Positions 3,728 through 54,507 of a DNA stretch of 64,000 nt are shown here, piece after piece (positions within the stretch are counted from its first letter, which is position 1; the number at the start of each line of letters is the position of its first letter). The notes under the pieces were generated by a model that did no database searches, was not told where the DNA came from, and saw only the letters and a list, made by a program, of their open reading frames with translations. Where the stretch lies: the IMG/VR virus record IMGVR_UViG_3300037471_001733, positions 22,201 to 86,200 of that record; one strand, 5' to 3'. This DNA is from a virus. Taxonomy: Duplodnaviria; Heunggongvirae; Uroviricota; Caudoviricetes. The position numbers were made by a program, and so were the translations under genes.

Positions 3728-4455
3728 TGCGCGGACCTCAGTCGGAATTGATGCATGGAACGAGGGGCCTGTGACTGGCTGCTGCCGGAGCCGAGAACTT
3801 CGATGGCGGCCAGCGTCCAGGTCTGTGAAGCGGGGGCCGTCATGCCAATCGCGTAGGTGCCAGTGGCGCCTGAATCGGCGTGGTAGCCGTGGTACACGCA
3901 GTACTCGTTGGCCAGTGTGTCGTTGTTCTGCGCAACGGCAGCAGTGCGCTGCGTGAACGTCCCGGCATTGCTGCGGTATGTCTGCGATGTCAACGCAGTG
4001 GCCGCACGGTCGCCGATGAACATCACCGCCGCCGAGTTGGCCCCGGTGGTCGTCAAGTTGACGGACGGAGCCGTGCCGGTACCGGAGCCAGAGACAACGG
4101 CACCGACGCCGCCAGCACTGCGGAACTGGTACGCCGTCGCGCCGAACACGATGCCATCGTCTCCTTCAGTGCCAGCGCCGCGCGAGACCGAGATCGTCAC
4201 GGACGCTGCCGTGGACGCAGTGGCGGTCCAGATGTAGAGCTCAGCGTGCGACGAGTCGACCGCGACGTCCGCGCGTTGCGTGTACGTGTTCGTCGCGCTG
4301 TCGCTAACGACTAGGCCGTCAATGTGCGATTTCAGGGTGCCAATGACGACGATCAGGTCGCCAACCTGCGTCGTGAGCGACATGGTCAGCGCGCTGCCGA
4401 AGGCCTGGGCCCATGTGCTCGTGTTTACGCTGGTGACAAAGGTTGGTGCTGCCAT
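3724..4455 (-). CDS. hypothetical Thr/Ser/Ala-rich protein
   Basis: 243 aa ORF tightly packed in operon. Confidence 0.45.
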   Translation of the reverse strand: MAAPTFVTSVNTSTWAQAFGSALTMSLTTQVGDLIVVIGTLKSHIDGLVVSDSATNTYTQRADVAVDSSHAELYIWTATASTAASVTISVSRGAGTEGDDGIVFGATAYQFRSAGGVGAVVSGSGTGTAPSVNLTTTGANSAAVMFIGDRAATALTSQTYRSNAGTFTQRTAAVAQNNDTLANEYCVYHGYHADSGATGTYAIGMTAPASQTWTLAAIEVLGSGSSQSQAPRSMHQFRLRSAQ

Positions 4456-9099: not shown

Positions 9100-10182
9100 C
9101 TACTTGCTGATGAGGCTCAGGATGTGGGCCTTCAGGTTCGCCAGCTCGGTTGCGCTTTGCTCGTCACGAGCAGGCGCGGCCGGAGCCGCAGGTGCGGCAG
9201 CGGCGGGTTCCCGAGACTCGTCGCGAGGCCCGGTGTGCAGCGCGGCCTTGGCCAGTGCGATGACGCACTTGGCCTCGGCCGCAGAAAGGCCAACCGCATC
9301 ACGCAGTTGGCGCTCAAGGATGCGGACCTCAGGCGTGCCGTCGTCGTCGCCGGCAGGCACGAGGTCTTGCGGGGTGTTCTTGAAGAAGGGCAGCATGGCC
9401 GAGCGCGCATGCGTCAGCGCGGCCTTCTTCTCCTTCTTCTTGGCCGGCACCATCGTGTCGGCGAATCCTTTGTCCACGGCGTCCTGGCCGCGGAACCACG
9501 TTTCGGCGTCAACCCACGAGGCGATTTCGGCGCGGTCGCCACCGGTGCGCGCGACGTAGATGTCGATGAGGCCGGCTTCCAGCGTGTCCAGCACGTCGGC
9601 TTCCTTGCGCAGGGCCTTGGCGTTGCCGGCGAGAATCGTCCACGGCGCGTGGATCATGAAGTTCGCGCCTTCAGCGATGCGGATCTCGTCGCCGGCCATC
9701 GCAATTACGGAAGCGATGCTGGCGGCAATGCCATCGACGTGCACGATGATCTTGGCCTTGTGCGTGGCCAGCGCGTTGTAGATGCTGACGCCGTCGAACA
9801 CGGACCCGCCTGGCGAGTTGATGTGTACGTGCAGCTCATCAGCATCCAGCGCGGCGAGTTCGCGCACTGTGTCCTCGGCATTAACGCCGCCGTCCCAGTA
9901 GCCGCCGATGTCGCCGTATACAAACAGCTTCGGCGCTTCGCCTTCGTCGGCGGCCAAGCGCAGGTGGCCAGGGCCCAGCGCGCGCGGCGCCAGATTCATT
10001 GCCCGCTCGGGCAGGCCGGCGAGATTGATGACGGGTTTGGTCATTGCGGCCGTCCCTTCCTCATTGCTTTCTTGTTCCTCGCCCAACTCGGAGAGGACTG
10101 CGGCCAGCGACACCTGAGCGTCGCGGATGCGAGATTCGTTGCGGGCGCTCAGCACGCGCCCGGCGTTCAGACGTTGGCCCAT
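9100..10182 (-). CDS. prohead protease (ClpP/S14-like) fused to C-terminal scaffold-like domain
   Basis: 360 aa; 'INSPGGSVFDGVSIYNAL...HVDGIAASIASVIAMAGDEIRIAEGANFMIHAPW' ClpP-type serine protease core; Ala/Pro/Glu-rich C-terminus. Confidence 0.8.
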   Translation of the reverse strand: MGQRLNAGRVLSARNESRIRDAQVSLAAVLSELGEEQESNEEGTAAMTKPVINLAGLPERAMNLAPRALGPGHLRLAADEGEAPKLFVYGDIGGYWDGGVNAEDTVRELAALDADELHVHINSPGGSVFDGVSIYNALATHKAKIIVHVDGIAASIASVIAMAGDEIRIAEGANFMIHAPWTILAGNAKALRKEADVLDTLEAGLIDIYVARTGGDRAEIASWVDAETWFRGQDAVDKGFADTMVPAKKKEKKAALTHARSAMLPFFKNTPQDLVPAGDDDGTPEVRILERQLRDAVGLSAAEAKCVIALAKAALHTGPRDESREPAAAAPAAPAAPARDEQSATELANLKAHILSLISK

Positions 10183-10185
10183 GGG

Positions 10186-11481
10186 CTACCCTTGGTTGCG
10201 CGCTGAAAGCGCTTGACTGGATGCCGCCAAGTCGTTGTTGTCTTGCTGTGCCGGGGCCGCGCCAGCGGGGTTGCTTGGCATGCCTAATTCCGGATCAGAG
10301 GCGTCGCCCATGTTCACGGGCGCGCGGTAGATTTCGCCGCCCTCGTACGGGTTCTGCTCCTCGTAGGCGCGGATCTCGTTCGCGTTGAGCGCGCCCATCT
10401 GCCAGAGGCGGAAGTAGTACTCGGCGCGGTCACGCGCGGCGCCGCGCATCAAGGCATTGGCGTTGAACTTCGCGTAGATACCGTCGTCCAGGTCACGCTC
10501 GCTAAGCAGGTTGCAGTCGATGCTCTGCTCGATGCGTTCGTACCAAGGCGCCAGGCAGTGCACCACGTGCGCCAGGAACATCTGCTCCGCGCTGGCGTAA
10601 GTGGCCGTCTTGTCGCTGTAGCCGACCATCAGTGGCGCGCACCTAAAAATTCTGCACACCTCTTCGATCTGGTGACGTCTCGTTTCGAGATGCTGGCTAT
10701 CAACGCCCGTCATCGACGTCGGCACAAACTTGGCGCCGCGGTCAAGAATCATCGGGCGGAATCTCGCTTCGCCTGTCATGTTCTTCTCGACCCAGTTGCG
10801 CAGAGCAAGGAACTGGTCCGGAAGCAGCTTGTCGTCCACGCTGTAGATGCCAGTGGACTGCGCGCCATTGGCATGCATCAGCGCATGCGCCTCTTCGGTC
10901 GCCATCGCAAGGCCTATGGCCTCGCGAGCCAACTGCAACGGCTTTAGGCCGTCATAGCCGTTCCAACTCAGCCCTTTGACGTGCCAGATCGCCTCAGCCG
11001 GGAAGTCCTGCGACTGCCCAGTGATCTCGCTGCTTACGCGGTACACCGGCCGGCGGAACTGGTCCACATCCACGCACACCTCGTGCGGGAGAAACGGGAT
11101 CAACTCGCGGATCTTGCCGTTGACGACGTTCTTGAACGCCACGAAACGACCGGCCAAGCACACATGCGCGGCCAGCATCTCGCGGAACTCGAAGGACGTC
11201 TGCCAAGGGTTCGGCCGGCGGTACAGCACGCGATACAGCGGGTGGTCCTTCGCCGGATCGCTGCCGCCGTCGTCACGCTCCTTGTAGAGCTTCAAGGGCA
11301 CCTGCGCGATGCCCTCGGCAATCACGCGCACGCACGCCAGGACCGTCGTCACCTGCAGCGCGGTTTCCACCGTGACGTTCTGACCCGAACGCGACGCAGG
11401 AAACCAGCCGCTCCAGAAAGGCTCAGTGAACGCCTGCGCCCGGCGCTGCCGCGGCGCCATCATCTTCGACAGGAAACTCAC
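10186..11481 (-). CDS. portal protein, HK97 family
   Basis: 431 aa; Phage_portal pattern, located between large terminase and protease. Confidence 0.85.
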   Translation of the reverse strand: MSFLSKMMAPRQRRAQAFTEPFWSGWFPASRSGQNVTVETALQVTTVLACVRVIAEGIAQVPLKLYKERDDGGSDPAKDHPLYRVLYRRPNPWQTSFEFREMLAAHVCLAGRFVAFKNVVNGKIRELIPFLPHEVCVDVDQFRRPVYRVSSEITGQSQDFPAEAIWHVKGLSWNGYDGLKPLQLAREAIGLAMATEEAHALMHANGAQSTGIYSVDDKLLPDQFLALRNWVEKNMTGEARFRPMILDRGAKFVPTSMTGVDSQHLETRRHQIEEVCRIFRCAPLMVGYSDKTATYASAEQMFLAHVVHCLAPWYERIEQSIDCNLLSERDLDDGIYAKFNANALMRGAARDRAEYYFRLWQMGALNANEIRAYEEQNPYEGGEIYRAPVNMGDASDPELGMPSNPAGAAPAQQDNNDLAASSQALSARNQG

Positions 11482-11756
11482 TCGGCAGCCTTCCCGTCAC
11501 CGGCACGCGCGCGGATGCCCATCAGGCCCAGGCCCAGCGCCAGCAAGCCGCCGACGATGAAGCCAGCCGGCAGGGAGTACAGGCCGGTGCCATAGGCAAC
11601 AGCCCCGGCGCCGCCCAGCGCCAGCATGTCCGGCATCAGAAAGGCCAACAGTTCGCCGCCGGCCGCAATCAGGCCCAGCATGGCGCGGCCAAGGGTCAAC
11701 ATTCGGCGGGCCAGAAATGTCCTGGCACCGGCGATCTTCGTTCGCAGGTTTTTCAC
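11478..11756 (-). CDS. small membrane protein (hypothetical)
   Basis: 92 aa ORF with two hydrophobic helices between terminase and portal; overlaps both neighbours by 4 nt. Confidence 0.35.
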   Translation of the reverse strand: MKNLRTKIAGARTFLARRMLTLGRAMLGLIAAGGELLAFLMPDMLALGGAGAVAYGTGLYSLPAGFIVGGLLALGLGLMGIRARAGDGKAAE

Positions 11757-13513
11757 GGCGTCAGGACTTCCCAGAATGACTTTCCAGTGGACTCGGTGGT
11801 TCTGGACATCAAGCCCACGGCCATCACAGCCGCCACGATGAGGTCGATGCGGCCCGTGGCCTTTTCCTTGCTGAGCTTGCGGTTCTCGGCGTCATCCATC
11901 ACCGTCACCGCGTTGCTCGCACACCAGTTGAAAACTGGGTGGTCGTTGTGCGCCAACTCGTTGTTGAGCAGCATTCGCTCGAACTCTTCAACGGCTGGCG
12001 AAGCCTCTTTGTAACCTTGCCCGAACGCGACCATGGGCGGTAGGCTGATGCCTTCGTCGTCGGCAAGCGCCAGCAAGTCTTCGATGCGCCAGCGGTCGTA
12101 TGCGACGCCCTGGATCTCGAATGCCTCGGACAGCGCGGACAGCCGCTGCAGCACGTTGCGCTTGCTGATCGCGCGCCCCGGCGTGGTGTCCAAGTGCCCG
12201 GCAGCTTTCCACTGCACGTAGGGCACTCGATCGGTTTCGGCCTTCTTCTGCAGCCCCTCATCAGGCAGCCAGGCGAACGGCACTAGGTGCCACGGCTCGC
12301 CTTCCTCTTGCGGCTCAACCAGCAGCACCAGCCCCGTAAGGTCGGTGGTGGACGACAGGTCCAGCCCGGCCCAGGCTCGCCGGCCGCGCAGGTCTTGCCA
12401 GTTGAAGGTGCGAATCGCACTCTTCCAAACGTCGGCCGACAGCCACGGCGAATCGGCATCCGTCCACTGGCAGAAATTCAGCCGGCGGACGATCGCCTCC
12501 TTAGACGGCATGCCGCGCGCTTCGGTCACCTGCTCGCGCAGGTACTTCATGCCCGGCAGATCGGCGTCCTGCAGCGAAGGGTTGGCCTTCACCCAGCACG
12601 ACTCGTCCGAGAAAGGATCCTCGCCTTCATCTAGGGCGCACACGAAACTGAAGAACGCATCGTCCTCCAGCGTCCCCGCTGCGACCTTTGCGCCGTACTC
12701 GTGGTACGCCCAGCACGGCCCCCGTTTGTCGGAGCCGCTGTTGGTGATCATGAAGATCAGCGCCTGCCGCCGGCTCTTGGTGCCGGCGCGCATCATCTCC
12801 ACGACCGTGTTGGTCTTGTGCTCGTGCAGCTCGTCGATGAGCGCAATGTGCGGCCGCGGGCCGGACTGCCCATCGTCCGAGCTGATCGGGCGGAAGAAGC
12901 TGCCGGCCTGCAGGTAGGCCAGGTTCCACACCCGCTCGCCCGTGCCGCTCTTGGTCAGCCGCTTAGCGAGTTCCGGCGACTGGTCCACCATGGCCACCGC
13001 GTCGCGGAAGAGGATCATGGCCTGATCCTTCTTCGTCGCCGCAGCGTAGACCTCTGCGCGCGCCTCGCTGTCGGCGGTCAGGCCAAGAAGCCCAATGCCC
13101 GCCGAAAGGGGCGACTTCCCGGAGCCCTTGGCCGTCTCGACGTAGGCAACACGGAACCGCCGCCAGCCGTCAGAACCCTTCCAGCCGAACAGACTGCCGA
13201 TGACGAATTTCTGCCACGGCAGAAGCTCGAAGGGCTTTCCCTCAAAGTCGCCGCCGTTGAGCTTCAGGACGTTGCGGTAGTACCGCAGCGCCTTCAGGGC
13301 GGTCTCCAGGTCCCAATTCAGGCCGCGTGCCGGGCCTTTCTCCAGGTCGCGCAGGTGGCGCGCGCATGCCGCGCGCACATGCGGGCCGGCGATGCGTTTG
13401 CCGTCAACGACGGATTGGGCGTACTCGGTGACCGGATCGTCACCAGTCGGGACGTCAGCCGAAGAATTCCTGTAAGTGGTCTTCCTTTTGGTCGTCGTCG
13501 GCGTTTTGGACAT
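11753..13513 (-). CDS. terminase large subunit (Terminase_1 family)
   Basis: 586 aa; Walker A 'VETAKGSGKS', 'ALIDELHEH' and C-terminal nuclease region. Confidence 0.85.
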   Translation of the reverse strand: MSKTPTTTKRKTTYRNSSADVPTGDDPVTEYAQSVVDGKRIAGPHVRAACARHLRDLEKGPARGLNWDLETALKALRYYRNVLKLNGGDFEGKPFELLPWQKFVIGSLFGWKGSDGWRRFRVAYVETAKGSGKSPLSAGIGLLGLTADSEARAEVYAAATKKDQAMILFRDAVAMVDQSPELAKRLTKSGTGERVWNLAYLQAGSFFRPISSDDGQSGPRPHIALIDELHEHKTNTVVEMMRAGTKSRRQALIFMITNSGSDKRGPCWAYHEYGAKVAAGTLEDDAFFSFVCALDEGEDPFSDESCWVKANPSLQDADLPGMKYLREQVTEARGMPSKEAIVRRLNFCQWTDADSPWLSADVWKSAIRTFNWQDLRGRRAWAGLDLSSTTDLTGLVLLVEPQEEGEPWHLVPFAWLPDEGLQKKAETDRVPYVQWKAAGHLDTTPGRAISKRNVLQRLSALSEAFEIQGVAYDRWRIEDLLALADDEGISLPPMVAFGQGYKEASPAVEEFERMLLNNELAHNDHPVFNWCASNAVTVMDDAENRKLSKEKATGRIDLIVAAVMAVGLMSRTTESTGKSFWEVLTP

Positions 13514-13955
13514 GAACCTTGGACCTCGCGGCCGGCGTCAGCCCGAACTCGACCAGCCACGCCTTGAAGCGCCGGTCGGCATCGGCCAGCATGGCCACCG
13601 CCGGGTTCGCTTTGATGCTGCGGTCGCCCTGCGTGTTCGTTGTTTCGTAGGTAGGGCCGTCCTGGTTCACCAGTTCCTGATACCGCAGGATCTCGGCGTA
13701 CACGGCGCAGCCTCTCTCAAGGGCGTAGGCATCGGCCTCGGTTAGCACGCCCATCCGATCCAGCAGCACAGACATGCGGCCCCAGGCAACCTTGGCCTCG
13801 TCGGACAAGTGGCTGGGGCAACTAGGTATCTCGCGGCGTGGTTTGGGCTCGCTCTTGTTGAGCGCGCGCCTTCCCGGGTTGCCTGTAACTATTTTTAAGT
13901 GGCTCGGTTTTGGCCTGCGCCCCGCCATATCTCTATTCCTTGACTGGCCAGCCAT
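13455..13955 (-). CDS. terminase small subunit, P27 family
   Basis: 166 aa; 'KPSHLKIVTGNPGRRALN' N-terminus typical of P27-family TerS; precedes TerL. Confidence 0.7.
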   Translation of the reverse strand: MAGQSRNRDMAGRRPKPSHLKIVTGNPGRRALNKSEPKPRREIPSCPSHLSDEAKVAWGRMSVLLDRMGVLTEADAYALERGCAVYAEILRYQELVNQDGPTYETTNTQGDRSIKANPAVAMLADADRRFKAWLVEFGLTPAARSKVHVQNADDDQKEDHLQEFFG

Positions 13956-14552: not shown

Positions 14553-15449
14553 CTATAACCCCAACTGCAGTTGACCAAGAGACTTGCTTCCCTTGGACCG
14601 GTTGCACCCAAAGCACTCGCACTGCGTGTTGCTATAGCTGTGTGGACCTCCATCGCGCAGGCTGACAACGTGACCAAGCTCCGGTGCGCCCTCAATCCTC
14701 TTGCCCATCTTCGACCTCGGCGTCTTAATGCCGCAAATCTTGCAGCGCCAGCCGTCGCGCTCAAAGACAGACAGCTTGTCCACCTTCTCGTACTCGCAGC
14801 CGAACTTTCTGGCGCGACGCCGATGCGTGGTGCCGCTAGTGGCTCTGTAACGGTAGCTCAGCTGACAGGCTATCGAGCAGTACTTTTGGCGCAGGTCGCC
14901 ATAGTCCGGCGTGAACGCAACTTCGCAGAAGCCGCACTTGCGAGGCGACCGGTCGCGGCTACGCTCTTGCTTCTTCCGATTGTAAACCTTGCTCCTGCAT
15001 TTGCTGCTACAGAAGTTCGCATCCGGCATCTTGGCCATGAAGTCGCGCCCGCAGGACGGGCTGGCGCAGACCCTGGCATAGCGCAGCTTATTCTGGCCGC
15101 GCTCCTTTTTCTCCGGCGCTGGAACGCACTCATAGCAGAACTTGCGCGGCTTGCCGTTCTTAAATAGTGGCTTTGGGTGGCGGCAGCCGTTTTCATTCCG
15201 GGTCCTGCACTCGTCGGAGCAATGACTGCGGCGCAGCTTCGTCGGCTTGAAGGGCATTCCACAGTAGGCGCATAACCGCGGCGGTTTCGGAGGCACGGGC
15301 GGATTCTTCCGTGGTCGTCCAGCGCCAGGACGGCGGCCGCCAGAGTTTGGACGCGGGCCACCGCGCTTTGAACGCGACGCCTCGACCAGTGCGCATAGCG
15401 CGCCTTTGCAGCCGCCAACAGACAGCCGCCTATACTCGCCTTCAACCAT
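14553..15449 (-). CDS. multi-zinc-ribbon protein with C-terminal HNH endonuclease domain
   Basis: 298 aa; at least 6 CxxC pairs, C-terminal 'ELGHVVSLRDGG...CECFGCNRSKGSK' HNH motif; AGGAAG RBS. Confidence 0.65.
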   Translation of the reverse strand: MVEGEYRRLSVGGCKGALCALVEASRSKRGGPRPNSGGRRPGAGRPRKNPPVPPKPPRLCAYCGMPFKPTKLRRSHCSDECRTRNENGCRHPKPLFKNGKPRKFCYECVPAPEKKERGQNKLRYARVCASPSCGRDFMAKMPDANFCSSKCRSKVYNRKKQERSRDRSPRKCGFCEVAFTPDYGDLRQKYCSIACQLSYRYRATSGTTHRRRARKFGCEYEKVDKLSVFERDGWRCKICGIKTPRSKMGKRIEGAPELGHVVSLRDGGPHSYSNTQCECFGCNRSKGSKSLGQLQLGL

Positions 15450-18784: not shown

Positions 18785-18813
18785 TTGCGTTCTGTAGTCG
18801 TTGCGCCTACATT
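18785..18813 (+). promoter_or_regulatory. rightward promoter (-35 TTGCGT, 17-nt spacer, -10 TACATT) with operator O2 TGTAGTCGTTGCGCCTACA
   Basis: mirror-image twin of the leftward promoter/O1, about 430 bp away; GGAG RBS and ATG 18873 downstream. Confidence 0.55.
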
Positions 18814-18872
18814 GGACACATCGCAGCACTGCTGCAGCGGCGCCACCCGCGACGAGTGGCACTGGAGTTGAT

Positions 18873-19547
18873 ATGTTTGGAAAATACGGCAAGCGGATTA
18901 CCGATCCTGCGGAACTGCGCGAGTATCGTTTGAGCTATGTCCCGGCCGCGCTGCGCGACCAGTGCCAGCACGTGAAGTGCAAAACCGGCGATGCTGAGGC
19001 GTGGATCTGGAGCGACAAGGGCCGCGCCTACGCGGTGGGTTTCTCCGGTCGCGGCAAACACCCGTGGTCGCGCAATGGTGGCCAGGGAGCGGCCTACTAC
19101 TTCAAAACCCCGGAAGCGCGCCGCTCCTGGGTTGCGGAACTGTTTGCAGACGCCATGGCCGACGCAAAGCGCGCCGAGGAGCGCAAGGCGCAAAAGGCCG
19201 CAGCGCGTGCAAAGCCGCACGCCTTGCAGGTGGGAGATGTGTTGCGCTCCTCCTGGGGGTACGACCAAACCAATATCGACTATTACGAGGTCACGAAGCT
19301 TGTCGGCTCACAGATGGTCGAGGTTCGGCGCATTGCCTGCCAGTCTGAGGAAACCGCGCACATGCAAGGCGTGAGCGTTCCCGCCCCTGGCCACTACATC
19401 GGCGAGCCGAAGCGTTGCAAGGTCTCCGACTACGGCAACCGCGACTCGGTCAAGGTGTCCGAGGTGGCGCACGCCTACAAGATGACCCCGCGCATCGTCG
19501 GCGGCGTCAAGGTTTTCAACTCGTCTAGCTGGACGGCCTACGCCTGA
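18873..19547 (+). CDS. hypothetical protein (first rightward gene of module)
   Basis: 224 aa from ATG with GGAG RBS at -8. Confidence 0.5.
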   Translation: MFGKYGKRITDPAELREYRLSYVPAALRDQCQHVKCKTGDAEAWIWSDKGRAYAVGFSGRGKHPWSRNGGQGAAYYFKTPEARRSWVAELFADAMADAKRAEERKAQKAAARAKPHALQVGDVLRSSWGYDQTNIDYYEVTKLVGSQMVEVRRIACQSEETAHMQGVSVPAPGHYIGEPKRCKVSDYGNRDSVKVSEVAHAYKMTPRIVGGVKVFNSSSWTAYA

Positions 19548-20340: not shown

Positions 20341-20453
20341 CCCCTTCCGGCGCACTCGCAAGGGTGCGCATTGCGATGCAGCCACGCGGAAGCATCGCAA
20401 TGCGCCAGCGCGCATAACGGCGCCGTCCCGGCTTGAGGCGGCAGGAGATTCAG

Positions 20454-22262
20454 ATGTCAGCACAAGACTTGATTGTTAGGATCAACGCAGCCGCCCAGGT
20501 GGCCCCGGAGCAACTGCCCAAAGGGGCGCAGCCGCGCGACCACATGATTGCCTTTGAGTACACCGACGCCCACGGCACGCGCGGCTGCATGCGCATCCTG
20601 AACACCCGGGCGCGGCTGCTGGCCTTCGCTGAGCAGGTGCGGAAGAACGCGGCAGCATTCGACGGCAAGCCGCGCAGCAAGCCCGCCGGGCCGCGCAAGA
20701 TTGCCGGCGCATCCCCGCTTTCCACGGCGCGCGCACTGCTCAAGGATGGCGCGCGGGTTGAAGCCCTCGCAGCGCTTGAGGCGCGCGGCGGGGAGGTGTT
20801 TTTCGGCGCCGCTGGCGTGCCTGTGCTGCATCAGGTTGCACAGCGCGTGGAGCACGAGGGCCGCCGCTGGGTTGTCACGCGCTGCGCCGTTGATGGTCTC
20901 ATCTACCTCATTCACGAGGCGTCCGGGCTGTCAGCAGGCGGCAAGGGCTTGCCTGAGATGCGCAGCATTGCGGATGCCCTGGCGCGGCTTGAGCTCGTGC
21001 ACCGGGACGAGGCGGAAAACGGCTACCGGCAGCGAATGATTGCTGCGATCGAGCAAGCGGCGGATTACGACCAGCAGGCGGCGCGCGCGGCTTTCGAGGC
21101 GTGCGATGGTCTCAAGAGCAAGGATGCCGCGCCGGTGGCTCAGGAAGCGTACCAGCAGGCGCGCGCGCTGTCGGCGGCGCAGGTGGCGCCCGATGTCGAG
21201 CCGGCAGTAGATGCAGACCCCTCCCCGGTGGAAAGCGAAGCCGAGGCGGCACCCCCTGTAGCGGAAACGCCTGCGGCAGCTGACACCCCTGCAGCGGAAA
21301 TCGAGTCCAGCGCGCCGGCGGTTGCGCCAGCATCCCCTCCGGCGGATTCACAGGCAGGCGCTGCACCCCCTGCGATGGAAAGCGCGCAGCCTGCGCCGCT
21401 TGCCACCGCGCCAGGCCGATCGGATGCGCTCATCGCGCGGGCCATCGCTTGGGTTGCCGTAGTCTGGGGAACCGCCAGCGTGCCGAGCGTTGCGGACTAC
21501 CGCGCCGGCCGGTGCGATGACACATTCCCGTGGGCGGGCGGCAGCCGCGCCGCCGGCTATCTGACATGGGCCGACCTCATTGGCGAGTGCATGGCCGCGC
21601 TGGAGCGCGACGACAGCGCCGACCAGGCGGCACGAGACGCCGCACTGCAACCACCGACCCCCATCCGTAGGAAAGGCCCGCGACAACATGAGCAGCACAC
21701 CCCATCCCGTGCAACCCGCAGTGCCAACCGGCCGCGAGTGGTGGACCCGCGGGCTGCTCGACTGGCACGCCGAGGCGCTGCACGCCGCCCAGGAGATCGC
21801 CGCGCTGCGCGAATCACTGGCTGCGGAGCGCGCAATGGTCCGCGAGCTGCAGGAGGCGCTCGCTGCCCGCCGGCAGGCCGCTTGACCCCTTCCCGGGGAA
21901 TCACGGCGCCACAAGCTTGCCGCCCCTGGCGCGACGCCAGCGAAACCCGAGACTGCACCCATAAAAACCTGGAGCACAGCATGACCTACACCGAAGCCAT
22001 CCAAGCCCTGCGCGACGCTATTGCGCAGGCCCCGAAGGGTGAAAAGCTGCAAGCCTTCCAAGCCAAGCGGGAGAAGATAATAGGGGCAATGCCCAAGGTG
22101 GAAATCTGTGGCGGCGAGCAGTGCATCCGCTATCCCAAGGGCTACCGCTTTGACTGCGGTCGCGAGGTCCACACGGACTGGATGTGGCAACCGTTTGCCA
22201 GCGAGGAAATCGCCATGCGGCCTGGCAACCTGCCGTACATCCTGCGCATGCCGGCTGCCTGA
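20454..22262 (+). CDS. iteron-containing ORF (candidate replication-initiator-like protein); 3' third is probably read-through overlapping two separately translated small genes
   Basis: ATG 20454 with AGGAG RBS; no in-frame stop until 22262; central P/A/E-rich linker encoded by iterons; Arg-rich junk-like translation 21650-21980. Confidence 0.4.
   Translation: MSAQDLIVRINAAAQVAPEQLPKGAQPRDHMIAFEYTDAHGTRGCMRILNTRARLLAFAEQVRKNAAAFDGKPRSKPAGPRKIAGASPLSTARALLKDGARVEALAALEARGGEVFFGAAGVPVLHQVAQRVEHEGRRWVVTRCAVDGLIYLIHEASGLSAGGKGLPEMRSIADALARLELVHRDEAENGYRQRMIAAIEQAADYDQQAARAAFEACDGLKSKDAAPVAQEAYQQARALSAAQVAPDVEPAVDADPSPVESEAEAAPPVAETPAAADTPAAEIESSAPAVAPASPPADSQAGAAPPAMESAQPAPLATAPGRSDALIARAIAWVAVVWGTASVPSVADYRAGRCDDTFPWAGGSRAAGYLTWADLIGECMAALERDDSADQAARDAALQPPTPIRRKGPRQHEQHTPSRATRSANRPRVVDPRAARLARRGAARRPGDRRAARITGCGARNGPRAAGGARCPPAGRLTPSRGITAPQACRPWRDASETRDCTHKNLEHSMTYTEAIQALRDAIAQAPKGEKLQAFQAKREKIIGAMPKVEICGGEQCIRYPKGYRFDCGREVHTDWMWQPFASEEIAMRPGNLPYILRMPAA
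21218..21385. repeat. iteron cluster B inside coding sequence: 4 repeats plus 1 degenerate copy (CCCCTCCCCGGTGGAAAGCG, CCCCCTGTAGCGGAAACGCC, CCCCTGCAGCGGAAATCG, CCCCCTGCGATGGAAAGCGC)
   Basis: 21218-21237, 21252-21270, 21286-21303, 21366-21385; degenerate 21334-21354; each encodes P-P/A-V/A-E-S/T. Confidence 0.6.
21688..21885 (+). CDS. small coiled-coil protein (65 aa), overlaps the long ORF in another frame
   Basis: AGGAAAGG RBS; ends in TGACCCCTTCC copy 3 (21883-21893). Confidence 0.45.
   Translation: MSSTPHPVQPAVPTGREWWTRGLLDWHAEALHAAQEIAALRESLAAERAMVRELQEALAARRQAA
21980..22262 (+). CDS. small Cys-containing protein (94 aa)
   Basis: internal ATG with GGAG RBS, same frame as long ORF, clean stop. 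Confidence 0.45.
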
Positions 22263-30361: not shown

Positions 30362-30579
30362 CACTCGGCTCCCTTGTCGGCCTGCTTCGACTTGTCCAAG
30401 TAATCGGCCCACTGGATGAGTTGCAGGCCCAAGAATCTGGCGCATTCCGTGGTCATGAACACAGCGCTTTGGGATGTGCCGCCAGTACTCAGCAGCACCT
30501 TCTCGTCCTTGCCCTCGCAGACGCCAATGCCGACAGAGACGGCTCCCTTGTTTTGCGGCGGGTGGAAACCGTGGCTCAT
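30361..30579 (-). CDS. hypothetical protein
   Basis: 72 aa. Confidence 0.4.
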   Translation of the reverse strand: MSHGFHPPQNKGAVSVGIGVCEGKDEKVLLSTGGTSQSAVFMTTECARFLGLQLIQWADYLDKSKQADKGAE

Positions 30580-30761
30580 TCGTTAGCTCCTTTGTTGGCC
30601 TTCTGCGCCTCGTACTCCGCCCGCGTCACCGGCTCGGGCAGCCGCTTGCACACAGGCGCACCGCGCACGCGCTCGTGGGTGAGCTCGACGCCGTAGCGGA
30701 TGACCAGCTTGCCGCCGCAGTGACGGCAGACCTGGCCGTTGTTGTCGGGGCCGCTGCTCAC
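30576..30761 (-). CDS. zinc-ribbon protein (CRHCGG...C)
   Basis: 61 aa. Confidence 0.45.
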   Translation of the reverse strand: MSSGPDNNGQVCRHCGGKLVIRYGVELTHERVRGAPVCKRLPEPVTRAEYEAQKANKGANE

Positions 30762-31447
30762 TGGTTGGGCCCTTTGATGCTTGCCGGTAGGCTGTAGAGC
30801 TGCAGTTCCTGCGCGTTCTCAACCATGAGATCCAGTGCGGCCGACTGCGCTGGCGTCGGGCCGGGCGCCTCACCGTTGAGGATTTGGTCGATGGCCTCGC
30901 CGTAGTACGAGCCCTTGTATGGCTGGTTATCGCGCTGGCGCTGCGGGTTGCGCCGCGGCGGCACTTGGCCGCTGCGCCTTTGAGACAGCGCCTCGCGCAA
31001 CTGCGTCGGCGTCATCATGCTGGCGCTGAGCACAGGTTTGTCGCCGCACCGGCTGCCGTCGCACTCCCCGCAGCACTCGCCATTTGCATCGGCCGCCTCC
31101 TTGGCCCTCCGCTCCTGCAGCGCCTTGAACGCAGCCTCGCCCGCAATGACATATGGCGTGAACACTCCGTACCCATGACGCTCTTCGGCTGGCGGCACCT
31201 GCGCGGTATGCAGCGGTCGCTGCACTGGGTTGGACGATGCCGGCCACTGGCGAGGCGGGACCATGCCTTGCGGCCTTGGGATCGGATGCGGCGGCACATG
31301 GCCGCGGTAGTCCATCAAGGCCATTGAGTCCTGCAGATCGAGCCACGCGCGAAGCGCCAGGACGATGGCCGCGAAGGCCAGAGCAACCACCGCGACAAGG
31401 ATGTACGGCGCGGCCGGCGATGTAGCGAAGTCGATGAACCAGCCCAT
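30758..31447 (-). CDS. single-pass membrane protein with Cys-rich (CCGECDGSRCGD) soluble domain
   Basis: 229 aa; N-terminal TM helix; follows SPFH gene. Confidence 0.5.
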   Translation of the reverse strand: MGWFIDFATSPAAPYILVAVVALAFAAIVLALRAWLDLQDSMALMDYRGHVPPHPIPRPQGMVPPRQWPASSNPVQRPLHTAQVPPAEERHGYGVFTPYVIAGEAAFKALQERRAKEAADANGECCGECDGSRCGDKPVLSASMMTPTQLREALSQRRSGQVPPRRNPQRQRDNQPYKGSYYGEAIDQILNGEAPGPTPAQSAALDLMVENAQELQLYSLPASIKGPNQ

Positions 31448-31456
31448 GGCGCACCC

Positions 31457-32305
31457 TTACCTGACGGACACCAGAGGCTGCGCGCCGTACGGGACCATGA
31501 TCGTGGTGTTGCCGTCCTTCGCGGCAATCGCGCGCTGGGCCTCGATCTCACGCATCTTCAGCACCTGCGGCGTGATGCTGGCAGCAAGGATCTCGTTGGC
31601 TTTGGCAGTGGCCTGCGCGCGCAATACATCAGCCTTGGCGATGCGCTCCACTACCTCCATCTGCCGTGCCGTCTCAGCCTTCTCCAGCGCCAGTTCCTTC
31701 TGCTTGGCCTCGATTTCCTTGTCCTTGGCTGCGGCGTTGCGGATGGCCTGCTCAATGGCAGGGTCCGTCACCATGTTGCGCACGTTGATGTTGGTGATGA
31801 CGAAGGCCTCCTTGTCGGTGTCGTCCAGCGCCTTTTGCAGTGCCTTCTGGATCGCTTGGCCGACCTCGTTGCGCTTGGTGTGCATCGTGGTGGCATCGAA
31901 GTCCGCAAACGCCTTGTAGATGGCTTCGCGCCCCTCGCGGCTCACGCGGTTGAATCCGACGACCGAATCTCCGTTGTCAAGCTTGCGGACATCGCCCTGG
32001 TACTTGATGAACAGGGCCGCGACCTTGGCCGGGTTGACGCGGAAGTAGATGTCGAGGTCCACGTCCTGCATGGAGAGGTTGTCCTTCGACTTCGGCGCCA
32101 TGTTGTCGAACGACACGGCGATTTCCTTGGTCGTGAACTCGTCCACCGTCTTGAACATCGTGAAGTACACGCCCTGAGGAAGTGTCTCGGGGCTGACCTT
32201 GCCGATGGTCCGCTCGACGCCCACGTTGCCGGTGTCGATCTGCGTGCAGGCGCCCAGCAGCATGACGATGCCCATCAGGGCCAGGGAGAACAGTCGCTTG
32301 ATCAC
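31457..32305 (-). CDS. SPFH/band-7 (prohibitin/HflC-like) lipoprotein
   Basis: GTG 32305 (alt ATG 32275); lipobox 'LLGAC'; SPFH core 'GVERTIGKV...LDIYFRVNP...' and long C-terminal coiled coil. Confidence 0.7.
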   Translation of the reverse strand: MIKRLFSLALMGIVMLLGACTQIDTGNVGVERTIGKVSPETLPQGVYFTMFKTVDEFTTKEIAVSFDNMAPKSKDNLSMQDVDLDIYFRVNPAKVAALFIKYQGDVRKLDNGDSVVGFNRVSREGREAIYKAFADFDATTMHTKRNEVGQAIQKALQKALDDTDKEAFVITNINVRNMVTDPAIEQAIRNAAAKDKEIEAKQKELALEKAETARQMEVVERIAKADVLRAQATAKANEILAASITPQVLKMREIEAQRAIAAKDGNTTIMVPYGAQPLVSVR

Positions 32306-32316
32306 AGGTTCTTCTT

Positions 32317-32508
32317 TCAAAGCAGGTTGGTGGACGGGAGGTAATAGGCCGACGCAACGAGCGCCAGCAGGACGAGCACGAGCGCGCCGAGACGCAGACC
32401 GTGCCGGGTGACAAGGCGCGCGGCTTGGCTGCGCTCCTTGTGGTCGAAGAACTGCCAGGCGCCGTAGCCGAGCACCAGCAGCACGATGAGCAGGAGCAGG
32501 TGTTTCAC
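32317..32508 (-). CDS. 2-TM small membrane protein (63 aa), candidate partner of SPFH protein
   Basis: MKHLLLLIVLLVLGYGAWQFF...LGALVLVLLALVASAYY. Confidence 0.45.
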   Translation of the reverse strand: MKHLLLLIVLLVLGYGAWQFFDHKERSQAARLVTRHGLRLGALVLVLLALVASAYYLPSTNLL

Positions 32509-32696
32509 TGGACCATCTCCGGTGCAAGGTGAAGGTTTGCGGTCAGTGCGGGCCGCATCTCGACCTCGTGTTCTGACTCAGTGGCGCATGCAGTGGCGCC
32601 GCCCACCGCGCGCAGCACGAGGCACGCGCCGACAGCGCCGCTGGCCACGCCGACAAGGGCGAACAGGCTGACAGCGAACAAGACGGGATGCTTCAT
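32505..32696 (-). CDS. small secreted/lipoprotein-like protein (63 aa)
   Basis: signal-peptide-like N-terminus MKHPVLFAVSLFALVGVASGAVGAC. Confidence 0.4.
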   Translation of the reverse strand: MKHPVLFAVSLFALVGVASGAVGACLVLRAVGGATACATESEHEVEMRPALTANLHLAPEMVQ

Positions 32697-32931
32697 TGCT
32701 GCACCTGCACAAAGACCGAACAAACGGCCCGCAGTTGGTCCGAAACCACCCCCGCCGGATCTAGCTTTTCCTCCTGCCCAGCCGGCTGTTCCTTGGCTTG
32801 GACCCCCTTGCAAAACCTGTCACGCGCAGGCCGGCGGTCCAGTTGAATGAGGTCGCGGGGAAGGACGTAGAAGGGAGGGACGATTGGGAACTTCAACATC
32901 GGGGGGCCTCTTGGGAACGAATCGGACGCAG

Positions 32932-33255
32932 TTACTTCAGTTTCGAAGCGCCGGACAGATGCCGGAACTTGGCCGCGATCAGCAGGCACTGCTGCTCAAC
33001 CCAGCCCATGAATCGCCACATGCGCGACGGCGCGAAAAGCTTTGCCTCTGGACCGCAAGGTCCGTCGGATGCACGCATCTCGCCCACCCGCATGGCCCAC
33101 GCATTGCCCTGCTGGTACTTGCTGCGCGACTTCAGATGGAAAGTGCCTGTGTACTGGTCCATGACATGGTCAAAGCCGTCCCAGTGCTCCTGGCAGTACG
33201 CGGCGCCATTGCGGCGACTGATGTGCAGGTGCTTGCAGCCGGTGCAGGGCTTCAT
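32932..33255 (-). CDS. zinc-finger protein (CTGC...C..H)
   Basis: 107 aa. Confidence 0.45.
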   Translation of the reverse strand: MKPCTGCKHLHISRRNGAAYCQEHWDGFDHVMDQYTGTFHLKSRSKYQQGNAWAMRVGEMRASDGPCGPEAKLFAPSRMWRFMGWVEQQCLLIAAKFRHLSGASKLK

Positions 33256-33728
33256 CAGACGTCCTCCTCAATCCAGCCGCCACCATCCTTCTTGGGGCGC
33301 GGGAAGATCACCTTGAACACAAGCGGATAGGCGTCAGCCGCAACACGCATCTTCACTTTCGCGTCGTCCTGATAGACAGCCTTGGCGCCCTTCACGTCGC
33401 GGAGCTCAAGCCTCCCATCGGCAGCCAACACCGCGAAGTCGGGCGTGAGGAATGTGTTGTCCGCGAGACGCAGCTTCACACCCTCAAAGCGGAACCACAG
33501 CACGCGGCCGGCGACGCGCTCAGCCTCAAGGTACTTGGCGTACTTGGCCTCAAGCGGGTTCATCTCGCCGGTCTTGAGCCTGCCAAGCGCGTACAGCCCG
33601 GCCTTTGTGCTGGCCGGCTTGGCTGGCGCTGGCGGCGCCTTAGCGGCCGGCGTCGACACGGGCTTGCCCTGCTTGGCCTTGTGCTCAGCCAACTGCTCCT
33701 CTGACCAGCGAAGCATCGTGCCCATCAC
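33255..33728 (-). CDS. DUF1064/VRR-NUC-like PD-(D/E)XK nuclease
   Basis: 157 aa; 'NPLEAKYAKYLEAERVAGRVLWFRFEGVKLRLADNTFLTPDFAVL...LRDVKG'. Confidence 0.55.
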   Translation of the reverse strand: MMGTMLRWSEEQLAEHKAKQGKPVSTPAAKAPPAPAKPASTKAGLYALGRLKTGEMNPLEAKYAKYLEAERVAGRVLWFRFEGVKLRLADNTFLTPDFAVLAADGRLELRDVKGAKAVYQDDAKVKMRVAADAYPLVFKVIFPRPKKDGGGWIEEDV

Positions 33729-40302: not shown

Positions 40303-40880
40303 GCCTTGGCTCCTTCAGCGGGCTCGTCTTTTCGGCGTTGGTCAGCTTCGCCAGCCAAGTGCAGGCCATGAATCGCTAGCGCCTCACGAATCCTGGCGAT
40401 GGATGTGGGTCCAATGCCGCCGAACCGGCGCCGAGTCAGGTCCGCAGGAGTGAGCCTCGTCAGGGCGCCAATCGTTCGCACGCCATTGCGGTCCAAGGAG
40501 CCGGTCACCCTGGGCGTGAGGCCATCAAGCGCGGCGGGCGAGAAGGCCAGGAAGCCGACGTCATCAGGGTGCGGGCCCTGCTCGTGGCGCGGCTCGATGA
40601 GCGGCGGACGGGCCGGAGACGGCGCAGGAGCGGGCTCGGGCGCCGGCACAGGGATCGTGAAGCTCACCGGCTTCAGGCGCACCTTCAGCATCTCGTCGGC
40701 CACCATGTACGACACGATGGCAACCTGCTCCGGGCTGATGTCGCCGCCGTAGGCGCCCAGCAGGGACTGCATGGCACCCTCAGCGAGCTTGTCGCGCAGC
40801 TTGGTCAATTGCTTGCTCATGCTCCAGCCCTCCGCGCAGTCGGCCGGTAACTCTCCCAAGGAAACGGCACCCAGCGACAC
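40299..40880 (-). CDS. protein with C-terminal RNA-polymerase alpha-subunit CTD-like helix-hairpin-helix domain
   Basis: 193 aa; 'IGALTRLTPADLTRRRFGGIGPTSIARIREALAIHGLHL' matches alpha-CTD HhH pattern ([27 protein letters not shown]). Confidence 0.5.
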   Translation of the reverse strand: MSLGAVSLGELPADCAEGWSMSKQLTKLRDKLAEGAMQSLLGAYGGDISPEQVAIVSYMVADEMLKVRLKPVSFTIPVPAPEPAPAPSPARPPLIEPRHEQGPHPDDVGFLAFSPAALDGLTPRVTGSLDRNGVRTIGALTRLTPADLTRRRFGGIGPTSIARIREALAIHGLHLAGEADQRRKDEPAEGAKA

Positions 40881-41650
40881 GTCTCGGCCAGTCGATCAAA
40901 GGTGCGCTCACCAACGAACTGCTTGAAGCCCGCCGAGTTCTGGTTCGTGAGCAGGATGGTCGGCTTGACATCGCGGTAACGGCCGTCCAGCACGTCGAAG
41001 ACGATGTTCTGCTCGCTATCGGTGCCGTACTGCACGCCAACCTCGTCGATGACCAGCAGGTCCAGGTCCGTCAGGTAGCGCAGCACCTGCGTCTCGCTCT
41101 TCTCGCTGTCGCGCCGCCACGTCTCGCGGATCATGCGGATCAGGTCCATGCAGGTCACGTAGCGCACATCCGGCGAAAGCAGCGACTGCAGGACAGCGCC
41201 AGCGAGGTGGCTTTTGCCGGTGCCCGGCTTGCCGGCCAAGATCAGCCCGGAGCCCTTGCGCGAGTGCTCGGCAAAGTTCTCCGCGAAATCGCGCGTCACC
41301 GTCAGCGCATGGCGCTTCTCGTCGGTGTCGGCCACGAAGTTGTCGAACGTGCGGCCGATGAAGCGCGTCGGGATCATGGCGCTGGCCAGCATCCGGCTAT
41401 GGCGCTCTTCAGCGTCGCGGCGCTTTTGCTCAGCCTCGGCCGCGCGGTCCTCCTTGGCCTTGGCCTCTTCGCAGGCAGGACAGCGCGACCAGATGCGGCC
41501 GAAGATGTTGCGGCTCGTGTAGTCCCCGTGCTCGAGGCAAGAGGCTGCGCGCTCTTCCACCTGGCGCCTCACGGTGTCAGACAAGCGATCCATCGTCATC
41601 CACGCCTTCGCGGTAGTCCTTGGAGTCAAAACCAGCGTGCTTGCTGGCAC
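40817..41650 (-). CDS. DnaC/IstB-like AAA+ helicase loader
   Basis: 277 aa; Walker A 'GKPGTGKSHLAGAV', Walker B 'LLVIDEVG'. Confidence 0.7.
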   Translation of the reverse strand: MPASTLVLTPRTTAKAWMTMDRLSDTVRRQVEERAASCLEHGDYTSRNIFGRIWSRCPACEEAKAKEDRAAEAEQKRRDAEERHSRMLASAMIPTRFIGRTFDNFVADTDEKRHALTVTRDFAENFAEHSRKGSGLILAGKPGTGKSHLAGAVLQSLLSPDVRYVTCMDLIRMIRETWRRDSEKSETQVLRYLTDLDLLVIDEVGVQYGTDSEQNIVFDVLDGRYRDVKPTILLTNQNSAGFKQFVGERTFDRLAETCRWVPFPWESYRPTARRAGA

Positions 41651-53357: not shown

Positions 53358-53890
53358 GCAAAGTTATCCTGTTGTCCGGCGGCCTGGATTCCGCCCTGTG
53401 CTTGGCTCGCTACGGCGCCGACTTGGCCATTGGCTTCAATTACGGACAGCCGCATGCGATTGAGTTGGCCCATGCCGAGCGCATTGCAAGGCAGCACGGC
53501 GTGCCTTTCGAGATCCATGCGCTGCCGACCATGCCGCGCGTCAACGACGTCGTCTTCGCCGGCCGCAATGCGGTGATGCTGACGGCAGCCGCAGCCATTG
53601 CTCAGGCGCGCGGCCACGACGCGGTGTTGATCGGCTGCAACTTCTCGGATGCCACCCGGTTTCCTGACTGCCGGCCGGAATTCATTCGCAACATCAGCAA
53701 GGCGCTTGAGTCGGCATATGGCGTAAGCGTCTGCGCGCCGCTGCTGTTGTCCACCAAGACGCAGATAGTGGCAGAGGCCAAGCAACGCGGCATCACGGAC
53801 ACCTGGACCTGTTACGCGCCCACAACTGATGGTCAGCAGTGCGGCCAGTGCTACTCCTGCCAGGGCATCGCCTCAGCGAGCGCGTCATGA
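53354..53890 (+). CDS. queC: 7-cyano-7-deazaguanine synthase QueC (short form)
   Basis: PP-loop 'LLSGGLDS', C-terminal Cys cluster CGQCYSCQ. Confidence 0.75.
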   Translation: MSKVILLSGGLDSALCLARYGADLAIGFNYGQPHAIELAHAERIARQHGVPFEIHALPTMPRVNDVVFAGRNAVMLTAAAAIAQARGHDAVLIGCNFSDATRFPDCRPEFIRNISKALESAYGVSVCAPLLLSTKTQIVAEAKQRGITDTWTCYAPTTDGQQCGQCYSCQGIASASAS

Positions 53891-54507
53891 CCTATACCGT
53901 CAAGGAGATCTTCTACACGCTGCAGGGCGAGGGCTTGCACGCCGGGCGCCCAGCGGTGTTCTGCCGCTTCGCCGGGTGCAACCTGTGGAGCGGGCGTGAG
54001 CAGGACAGGAGCAAGGCGGCATGCCGTTTCTGCGACACCGAGTTCCGCGGCGGCACGAAGTACCGCACGCCCGAGGATTTGGCTGATGCCATTGAGCAGG
54101 CGTGGGCGCCGCAGGTGGTGGCCCGACGCATGGTGGTGCTCACCGGCGGCGAGCCGGCGCTGCAGGTGGATCAGGCGCTTGTGCACTTGCTGCAGGCCCG
54201 CGGGTTCTATGTCGCCATCGAGACGAACGGCACCAAGGAACTGCCGCAGGGTCTGGATTGGGTGTGCGTGAGCCCCAAGGGCGATGAGCCGCTGCGTGTG
54301 GTGCATGGCAACGAGCTGAAGCTGGTGTACCCGCAGATGCTGGCACTGCCGCAGCGGTTTGAGGAGTTGGCCTTCGACCACTTCCTTCTGCAGCCCATGG
54401 ACGGCCCGTTCCTTGAGGCCAACACCCAGGCTGCCATCGAGTTCTGCATGGGCAACCCAAAGTGGCGGCTCTCGGTGCAGACCCACAAGTACATCGGAGT
54501 GCGCTGA
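53887..54507 (+). CDS. queE: 7-carboxy-7-deazaguanine synthase QueE (radical SAM)
   Basis: 'IFYTLQGEGLHAGRPAVFCRFAGCNLW' QueE N-terminal signature. Confidence 0.8.
   Translation: MTYTVKEIFYTLQGEGLHAGRPAVFCRFAGCNLWSGREQDRSKAACRFCDTEFRGGTKYRTPEDLADAIEQAWAPQVVARRMVVLTGGEPALQVDQALVHLLQARGFYVAIETNGTKELPQGLDWVCVSPKGDEPLRVVHGNELKLVYPQMLALPQRFEELAFDHFLLQPMDGPFLEANTQAAIEFCMGNPKWRLSVQTHKYIGVR

Follow-up and report, generated by a model that had tools for sequence, protein, structure and literature searches.

Genes for SPFH proteins have been noticed in many phages, including T4-like, Vi01-like and T5-like phages, Kayvirus, and Burkholderia phage CSP3; none of them has a known function, and no paper found in the literature reports one for any phage SPFH protein (cf. 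PMC13239085). Solved SPFH cages and their link to FtsH are documented in the PDB cage entries and in PMC2636767. Prokaryotic prohibitins (SPFH4) were described as the bacterial group closest to the eukaryotic prohibitins, were predicted to be periplasmic, and were reported to lack an NfeD partner (Hinderhofer et al., 2009; PMC2636767); prohibitin-type SPFH proteins of prokaryotes have indeed been described as having no partner protein (PMC2636767). Here, a window of 64,000 nucleotides of phage DNA was analyzed, comprising positions 22,201 to 86,200 of the IMG/VR virus record IMGVR_UViG_3300037471_001733 (Caudoviricetes); coordinates without a locus name refer to this window. The subject is a pair of adjacent genes encoding a small membrane protein and an SPFH/Band-7 lipoprotein, which an earlier note on this DNA had regarded as half of a four-gene envelope module. 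As shown below, one branch of the SPFH family, made up of lipoproteins, is accompanied by a conserved mini-membrane protein that went unrecognized by Pfam, PHROG, and NCBIfam models, and this mini-partner appears to be previously undescribed. With about even confidence, we read the two-gene cassette as a membrane scaffold of the prohibitin type that faces the periplasm and has its own mini-subunit; it would be related to host genes, expressed early in the lytic cycle, and auxiliary and host-like in function rather than an immunity device.

The SPFH protein, whose N-terminus reads MIKRLFSLALMGIVMLLGAC, matched Pfam PF01145 (Band_7) with 49.8 bits against a gathering cut-off of 23.6, covering positions 2–173 of the 176 in the profile. 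It also matched PHROG 200, annotated as lipoprotein, over its full length (E = 2.3e-49; residues 6–280 against profile positions 89–360 of 379), and 602 phage records were matched by tblastn. A signal region, with a positively charged n-region and a hydrophobic h-region, precedes a lipobox (LLGA-C20), the segment reading MIKRLFSLALMGIVMLLGA-C20, as in a lipoprotein signal. Cys20 is invariant in 33 of 33 aligned homologs and present in all recovered loci. The Band_7 match above cut-off, the PHROG 200 match, and the invariant lipobox cysteine bear out the identity given by the earlier note, and the protein is predicted to be lipid-modified at Cys20. The SPFH domain begins approximately two residues past this cysteine, where CTQIDTGNVGVE is conserved. 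An alternative TTG start at 32320 overlaps the stop codon of the partner gene (TTGA), and the resulting form of 287 amino acids (aa) is the one called by JGI.

The AlphaFold model of the monomer (pLDDT 78.6) combines the alpha/beta SPFH domain with a long oligomerization helix of approximately 60 residues (182–243), followed by a second helix (246–262) and a conserved C-terminal tail. Tail residues K263, G265, N266, T268, P277, and L278 are nearly invariant or invariant among homologs. Sequence searches alone found no solved structural relative of the protein. When the model was searched with Foldseek, the best matches were cage subunits of human PHB1/2, stomatin, HflK/C, and erlin, with E values of 1e-9 to 1e-7 and a probability of 1.0. 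The top structural matches were PHB1/2, and JGI labels homologs as “prohibitin 1.” The protein is probably a prokaryotic prohibitin of the SPFH4 group, an informal assignment.

The partner (VKHLLLLIVLLVLGYGAWQFFDHKERSQAARLVTRHGLRLGALVLVLLALVASAYYLPSTNLL) is encoded by an open reading frame (ORF) that starts with GTG, overlaps the stop codon of the preceding gene (GTGA), and stops 11 nt short of the start of the SPFH gene, which is translationally coupled to it; its G + C content at third codon positions (GC3) is 0.86. Two hydrophobic helices joined by a basic loop were confirmed, in agreement with the two-transmembrane peptide of the earlier note. Among its homologs, lysine and arginine together average 4.9 residues in the loop and 0.7 and 0.6 at the two ends. 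Because these residues are concentrated in the loop, the positive-inside rule predicts a cytoplasmic loop with both short ends in the periplasm. The consensus of the family is M-[KR]-H-x-LLL...Y..W...R...RH..RL...AY...LL. Both core genes are under purifying selection among three related phages, with ratios of non-synonymous to synonymous substitution rates of 0.11–0.28 for the partner and 0.17–0.52 for the SPFH gene. A profile search with the partner retrieved 55 protein clusters, none with a Pfam domain or a meaningful name, and searches of Pfam, PHROG, NCBIfam, and PADLOC returned sub-threshold noise only (Ibs_toxin, cytochrome b561). The partner was also considered as a truncated NfeD protein. 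One distant member carries the JGI label [quoted passage not shown] yet no PDB chain, the NfeD protein YbbJ (entry 8z5g) among them, resembled the profile, and this candidate was rejected.

The co-occurrence search proposed in the earlier note found the two-transmembrane partner beside the SPFH gene in 87 of 103 related loci, with 79 distinct partner sequences. The two genes overlap by 4 nt in 28 loci and are separated by at most 16 nt in nearly all others. Two metagenomic phage contigs, L001 and L002, encode SPFH proteins 84 and 65% identical to that of the window, each with a 63-aa partner, 81–83% identical, directly upstream. A scan of IMG/VR yielded 35 loci, and an ORF of approximately 63 aa with two transmembrane segments lies immediately upstream of the lipoprotein gene in all 35. 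There the pair is flanked by genes for single-stranded DNA-binding protein, exonuclease, integrase, SNF2 and DnaB-type helicases, primase, family-A DNA polymerase, and large terminase. Mis-binned host DNA was considered as a source of these loci and rejected because of the flanking genes for integrase, helicase, primase, DNA polymerase, and terminase.

Related arrangements occur in described phages. Salmonella phage Vi01 encodes the SPFH protein Vi01_108c together with Vi01_109c, a 69-aa protein with two transmembrane segments and a basic loop, with a 1-nt overlap. Caulobacter phage Karma has a protein with three transmembrane segments and a band-7 lipoprotein, and Kayvirus has MbpV, with one transmembrane segment, and a transmembrane-anchored MbpS. 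In gp16 of the Mycobacterium prophage McProf (L109:1270-2250), a transmembrane-loop-transmembrane segment is fused to the N-terminus of the SPFH domain, and this protein may be a fused counterpart of the hairpin and SPFH pair. T5-like phages and Aeromonas T4-like phages have a transmembrane-anchored SPFH protein and no small partner. The family occurs in virulent as well as temperate phages.

Chromosomal relatives were collected in a scan of one genome per species, which gave 61 loci, almost all in Burkholderiales and one of them, a weak match, in an Opitutales genome. The genera include Inhella, Roseateles/Pelomonas/Paucibacter, Ideonella, Hydrogenophaga, Rhodoferax, Acidovorax, Undibacterium, Derxia, and Caldimonas, with SPFH proteins 49–57% identical to that of the window. 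A homologous partner, often with the 4-nt overlap, is present in about three quarters of the Burkholderiales loci (approximately 44 of 58). In Inhella and Pelomonas, the pair lies between genes for thiolase, short-chain dehydrogenase, and acyl-CoA dehydrogenase, and in another genome it adjoins an RND efflux operon; these chromosomal contexts are non-prophage.

In a neighbor-joining tree, the clade of the window branches beside the large chromosomal clade; elsewhere, viral copies are nested in chromosomal groups and chromosomal copies in viral ones. The SPFH gene of L002 (L002:6001-6864) is a mosaic of phage and host sequence. Its residues from about 45 to 210 are 70–97% identical to Inhella and Pelomonas proteins, and its central 650 nt or so are 83–85% identical in DNA to the Roseateles and Pelomonas copies. 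The L002 partner and the last 70 residues or so of the L002 SPFH protein are of the phage type, with 77–87% identity to the window against 40–53% to the hosts. The chimera is direct evidence of recombination between phage and host within the cassette, and together with the interleaved tree it indicates that the two swap the cassette in this way. Freshwater Burkholderiales carry the pair as a normal cellular operon, and exchange between phage and host has taken place repeatedly.

The window has a G + C content of 62–67% throughout, with a genome average of 64%, and is phage DNA with a lambdoid layout (Table 1). A run of minus-strand genes leads from approximately 44 kb down to 1 kb, passing from the loader through many small ORFs, the resolvase, and the reported genes to the HNH endonuclease and the late genes. 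The reported genes sit in the nin-like part of a rightward-type early operon. They lie downstream of the DnaC-like loader and the PHROG-190 resolvase and upstream of the HNH, TerS, TerL, portal, and capsid genes, and the early-operon placement of the earlier note therefore holds. Neither tRNA genes nor Rfam matches were found in the window. No GenBank phage is alike at the DNA level, since a megablast search with the region gave no match among 50,697 phage records. Lysis genes could not be identified anywhere in the window; the lysis cassette may lie outside it.

Table 1. Positions of the two core genes, their neighbors, and landmark genes in the window.
Feature	Position	Strand	Remarks
Two-transmembrane hairpin mini-protein, 63 aa	32317-32508	minus	Core gene 1; directly upstream of SPFH gene
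SPFH/Band-7 prohibitin-like lipoprotein, 282 aa	31457-32305	minus	Core gene 2; Pfam Band_7, PHROG 200, lipobox
Peptide with hydrophobic N-terminus, 63 aa	32505-32696	minus	Variable neighbor, outside conserved cassette
Cys-rich protein, 229 aa, one N-terminal transmembrane helix	30758-31447	minus	Variable neighbor
ORF, 61 aa, CxxC...C, zinc-ribbon-like	30576-30761	minus	Coupled (GTGA) to Cys-rich membrane protein
Probable soluble ORF, 68 aa	32693-32899	minus	GC1/2/3 0.72/0.38/0.70; ATGA overlap with next gene; GAGG 11 nt before ATG
ORF, 107 aa	32932-33255	minus	GC3 0.80; ATG overlaps stop of resolvase-like gene (TGATG)
PHROG-190 Holliday-junction resolvase	33255-33728	minus	Directly ahead of reported genes
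DnaC/IstB-like loader	40817-41650	minus	Upstream of reported genes
Bet/RecT-like and exonuclease genes	45-62 kb	plus	
HNH endonuclease	14553-15449	minus	
TerS	13455-13955	minus	
TerL	11753-13513	minus	
Portal	10186-11481	minus	
ClpP-type prohead protease	9100-10182	minus	
HK97-type capsid protein	7786-9033	minus	

Between 33728 and 30576, each gene overlaps the next or is separated from it by a very short spacer. Sites resembling a sigma-70 promoter were not found across 28–36 kb, and the single weak terminator-like match in the run lies inside a probable coding sequence, with no convincing terminator between genes. The probable 68-aa ORF fills an apparent gap of 235 bp, which makes the run one continuous operon. 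A moron promoter or an RNA was considered for this gap and rejected, as sigma-70 sites, Rfam, and repeats or hairpins gave nothing notable and the ORF fits better. The promoter and terminator that flank a moron insert are thus missing, and the G + C content and GC3 are typical of the phage. Since its transcription is shared with the replication and nin-type early genes, the cassette is expected to act in lytic growth and not from the prophage.

Two further features of the layout were observed. Between 14000 and 24300, coding density and strand consistency fall between the HNH/terminase block and the early genes, and plus-strand ORFs appear at 18801-19547 (PHROG 37844) and 20433-22262 (609 aa, 69% G + C, no family match). 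The leftward-type early operon contains a gene for a QueE-like radical-SAM protein at 53839-54507 on the plus strand (PHROG 2076, 8e-32), which hints at 7-deazaguanine DNA-modification genes in the phage.

The operon context bears on the suggestion of the earlier note that the genes are a superinfection-exclusion or defense system without a named match. The second half of this suggestion held, as Pfam, NCBIfam, and PADLOC provided no match to a named defense system (PADLOC-DB 2.0 gave none at E ≤ 0.01 for ten proteins of the region), whereas nothing specific supports either exclusion or defense. According to the exclusion explanation, a complex of envelope lipoproteins would keep incoming phages from injecting DNA or from using their receptors, as Llp of T5, Cor, or Imm and Sp of T4 do. 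Phage lipoproteins are often exclusion factors, the present protein is placed in the envelope, and the cassette also occurs in virulent phages, which use exclusion; a Vi01 gene two genes upstream of the pair is annotated as “superinfection exclusion,” though the annotation is unverified. Against this, no homology to known exclusion proteins was found, the genes have no promoter or terminator of their own and are translationally chained into an early lytic operon, and orthologous pairs sit in ordinary metabolic neighborhoods of many Burkholderiales chromosomes. We consider exclusion or anti-phage defense quite unlikely, and the pair is removed from the list of possible new defense systems. An auxiliary, host-like role is favored because the cassette has no independent expression signals, is carried by both virulent and temperate phages, and belongs to the normal cellular operons of the host lineage.

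The genes around the pair were compared in the same set of loci. All four ORFs of the earlier note are present on the minus strand with the coding signature of a genome of 64% G + C (GC3 0.77–0.88). The span that it delimited, 30758–33255, does contain four envelope-type genes, but its content is not restricted to them, since the 107-aa ORF, which has no envelope signal, and the probable soluble 68-aa ORF also lie inside. The 107-aa ORF has no Pfam or PHROG match, and the 68-aa ORF is without a family match.

The first 63-aa peptide was taken to start at the ATG at 32696, because the in-frame extension upstream has a GC3 of 0.36; that of the peptide itself is 0.77. The earlier note had called it a secreted peptide. 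The hydrophobic N-terminus was confirmed, but a lipobox-type pattern (AVGA-C25) fits at least as well as plain secretion. The positional analog in L001 (L001:5605-5796), also 63 aa long, is 26% identical and has a lipobox-like LMGG-C27, and both peptides carry a second cysteine followed by A-[TI]-E-[SA]-[ED]. Judged from these motifs, both may belong to the small lipoproteins and not to the secreted peptides. An o-spanin-like lipoprotein was also considered and dropped, as no i-spanin, holin, or endolysin could be identified nearby or in 14–28 kb.

Membrane anchoring of the Cys-rich protein by one N-terminal hydrophobic helix was confirmed. The protein, which contains the motif CCGECDGSRCGDKP, has no match in Pfam, PHROG, PADLOC, or NCBIfam, and its family is rare, with eight cluster representatives among 1.84 billion proteins. 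A CCGxCDGSxCGDKP motif of the protein is kept in L001. If its C-terminus is cytoplasmic, it may form a metal-binding pair with the 61-aa ORF.

The earlier note treated the envelope genes as one module, and on this explanation four or more envelope-targeted genes would work jointly. The genes are adjacent and translationally coupled in the window, and the closest relative, L001, has analogs of all four. However, when the first peptide, the 107-aa ORF, the Cys-rich protein, and the 61-aa ORF were searched by tblastn against approximately 100 SPFH loci, including the co-occurrence search that the earlier note had suggested for the first peptide, L001 was the only locus with matches. Even there, a 174-aa unrelated gene is inserted between the homolog of the Cys-rich gene and the SPFH gene, and in L002 both the first peptide and the Cys-rich gene are replaced. 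The low identity of the first peptides and the rarity of the Cys-rich family also argue against a joint function. The gene upstream of the partner differs in almost every phage, being single-stranded DNA-binding protein, exonuclease, or a protein of no known kind. Since the extra genes are not co-conserved with the pair, the four-gene grouping is regarded as an accident of neighborhood and the pair as the unit; a joint function of all four is highly improbable. The description of the SPFH partners as tiny unrelated peptides is likewise revised: the two-transmembrane peptide is a conserved, cognate partner that in one relative is better kept than the SPFH protein, and the other peptide is not conserved. 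In two IMG/VR phages, a different hydrophobic peptide of 55–61 aa (…GFLLAGA.VFP..NIHG...W) is encoded just upstream of the partner (L018:~3620-3790 and L019:~1390-1570), which suggests that small membrane peptides are repeatedly recruited beside the cassette.

A mechanism can be proposed for the pair as a prohibitin-like scaffold. The SPFH protein would be exported, lipidated at Cys20, and held flat on the periplasm-facing leaflet of the membrane. Through its long C-terminal helix and conserved tail, it would probably assemble into a ring or cage like those of prohibitin, stomatin, and HflK/C. The 63-aa hairpin would lie in the inner membrane, probably as a dedicated membrane-embedded subunit, and would in effect provide the membrane-spanning segment that is built into other SPFH proteins; possibly, it also retains the lipoprotein at the inner membrane. 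Our best guess is that the cassette would reorganize or stabilize the host inner membrane during infection, either through membrane-protein quality control of the FtsH/prohibitin type or by keeping the membrane intact until programmed lysis.

Several observations weigh against this proposal. Under the enterobacterial +2 rule, threonine or glycine after the lipidated cysteine directs a lipoprotein to the outer membrane, a rule that may not hold in Burkholderiales. The residue in question is threonine in the window phage, threonine or serine in the family, and glycine in Vi01. An outer-membrane location would put the lipoprotein out of reach of its inner-membrane partner, whose periplasmic ends span just a few residues, so that direct contact between the two needs an inner-membrane lipoprotein. 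Nor is the partner strictly indispensable, since about a quarter of the chromosomal copies, namely those of Acidovorax, some Hydrogenophaga, and Derxia, have none upstream. In addition, the pair adjoins lysis genes in Vi01 and Kayvirus, which fits a lysis role as well as homeostasis, and the papers that mention phage SPFH genes call their function unclear (PMC13239085, PMC7150955, PMC10269572).

The lysis-related contexts have their own explanation, in which the scaffold would help to time lysis or secretion by organizing the holin or spanin or the Sec-dependent export of lytic enzymes. Such a role was proposed for MbpS and Tgl of Kayvirus, where mbpV-mbpS lies between lysK and tgl (PMC7150955), and the run that holds the Vi01 pair also encodes an Rz-like spanin and a LysM protein with the annotation endolysin. 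Replication and recombination genes, however, surround the pair in the window and in most IMG/VR loci, and neither endolysin, holin, nor spanin was identified near it in the window. This explanation, whose lysis-timing part the earlier note had also raised, is considered very unlikely.

The proposed scaffold can be extended to a more specific and speculative role, which we regard as unlikely. Several phage families would use a two-component prohibitin-like cage, consisting of a lipid-anchored SPFH ring and the 63-aa hairpin, to take over the host early in infection by fencing off part of its inner membrane. In this way, FtsH or some other effector of quality control or abortive infection could be sequestered, or holin triggering could be controlled. 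The phage-type C-terminus and the partner would prevent mixing with the host copy; both are retained in L002, although its SPFH domain was swapped for a host one. If true, phages would possess a new kind of system for manipulating the envelope, and prokaryotic prohibitins would have their first defined partner. In any case, the pair is a concrete and easily cloned two-gene unit for probing bacterial prohibitin-like scaffolds and the interest of phages in them.

Among known systems, the SPFH-NfeD operons (QmcA-YbbJ, YqiK-YqiJ, and YuaG-YuaF) likewise co-transcribe an SPFH gene with a small membrane partner. By analogy, the cage may cover a patch of membrane in which the transmembrane helices of the present partner lie. 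The OB-fold NfeD domain is absent from this partner, however, the gene order is different, and the SPFH proteins of those operons face the cytoplasm. No neighbor matched NfeD (PF01957) in Pfam or NCBIfam, in agreement with the earlier note, and without an NfeD domain the locus is not an SPFH-NfeD operon. The only NfeD-type match in the window was a weak, sub-threshold one to NfeD1b_N in the ClpP-like prohead protease, which is explained by the shared ClpP-like fold and is not an NfeD partner of the SPFH protein. The statement in the earlier note that SPFH proteins are usually paired with NfeD holds for the stomatin and flotillin types but not for HflK/C and the prokaryotic prohibitins (PMC2636767).

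The cages of HflK/C-FtsH, prohibitin, stomatin, and erlin share the SPFH domain, the long coiled-coil helix, and the C-terminal cap segment with the present protein, and HflK/C and prohibitin also have the same orientation away from the cytoplasm. The solved cages differ in that their identity to the SPFH lipoprotein is only 13–19%; here there is one subunit type instead of two, a lipid anchor instead of an N-terminal transmembrane segment, and no linked protease gene. HflK and HflC are two adjacent paralogs with N-terminal transmembrane anchors, whereas the window and all related loci have a single SPFH gene, with what reads as a cleavable lipoprotein signal. Because of the single gene and the lipid anchor, the pair is not HflK/C. 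These comparisons also bear on a modulator of FtsH that would tune the lysis-lysogeny decision or the stability of a phage regulator, as suggested for SPFH genes of the Pseudomonas element AH14b and Burkholderia phage CSP3 (PMC4936722, PMC10269572). The fold is close to that of HflK/C and prohibitin, which enclose AAA proteases, the periplasmic orientation is as in HflK/C, and the phage is of the temperate type, with integrases near the pair in relatives. On the other hand, the same family is found in strictly virulent phages (Vi01-like, T5-like, Kayvirus, and T4-like), no HflK/HflC pair is present, the lipid anchor replaces the transmembrane helix, and no cII or cIII homolog was identified in this phage. 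Neither ftsH nor hflX is in the window. An FtsH modulator of this kind is accordingly given the same low probability as exclusion.

PM0222 of Pasteurella multocida is an HflK/C-like SPFH protein on a lambda-like prophage, which is released in outer-membrane vesicles and acts in TLR1/2 signaling (PMC9872710). Such signaling would fit a lipoprotein, and the likeness is by description only; the reported role is in virulence toward animals, which is irrelevant to a freshwater-type host.

Among the closest known systems is that of phage Vi01 (Kuttervirus), whose SPFH protein Vi01_108c (PHROG 200) is 33% identical to that of the window over 96% of its length and has the same lipobox, SPFH domain, long helix, and two-transmembrane partner. 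Vi01 differs in being a virulent enterobacterial myovirus with the pair beside lysis-region genes, and its partner resembles the present one in architecture only, with undetectable sequence similarity. Another is the chromosomal operon of Burkholderiales (Inhella, Pelomonas/Roseateles, Ideonella, Hydrogenophaga, and Undibacterium), with an SPFH protein of 50–60% identity. It is cellular, has a metabolic neighborhood and C-terminal 70 residues unlike the phage type, and lacks the partner in some genera. The earlier note had set a conserved housekeeping operon of the HflKC type against its own reading. In part this applies, as the pair is a conserved chromosomal operon in Inhella, Pelomonas, Roseateles, Undibacterium, and other genera, beside thiolase, short-chain dehydrogenase, and acyl-CoA dehydrogenase genes; it is not HflKC itself. 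The chromosomal operon and the phage cassette have the same gene order and the same 4-nt overlap, and their partners are clearly homologous (MRHLLILLVALLAGYGLWQL...).

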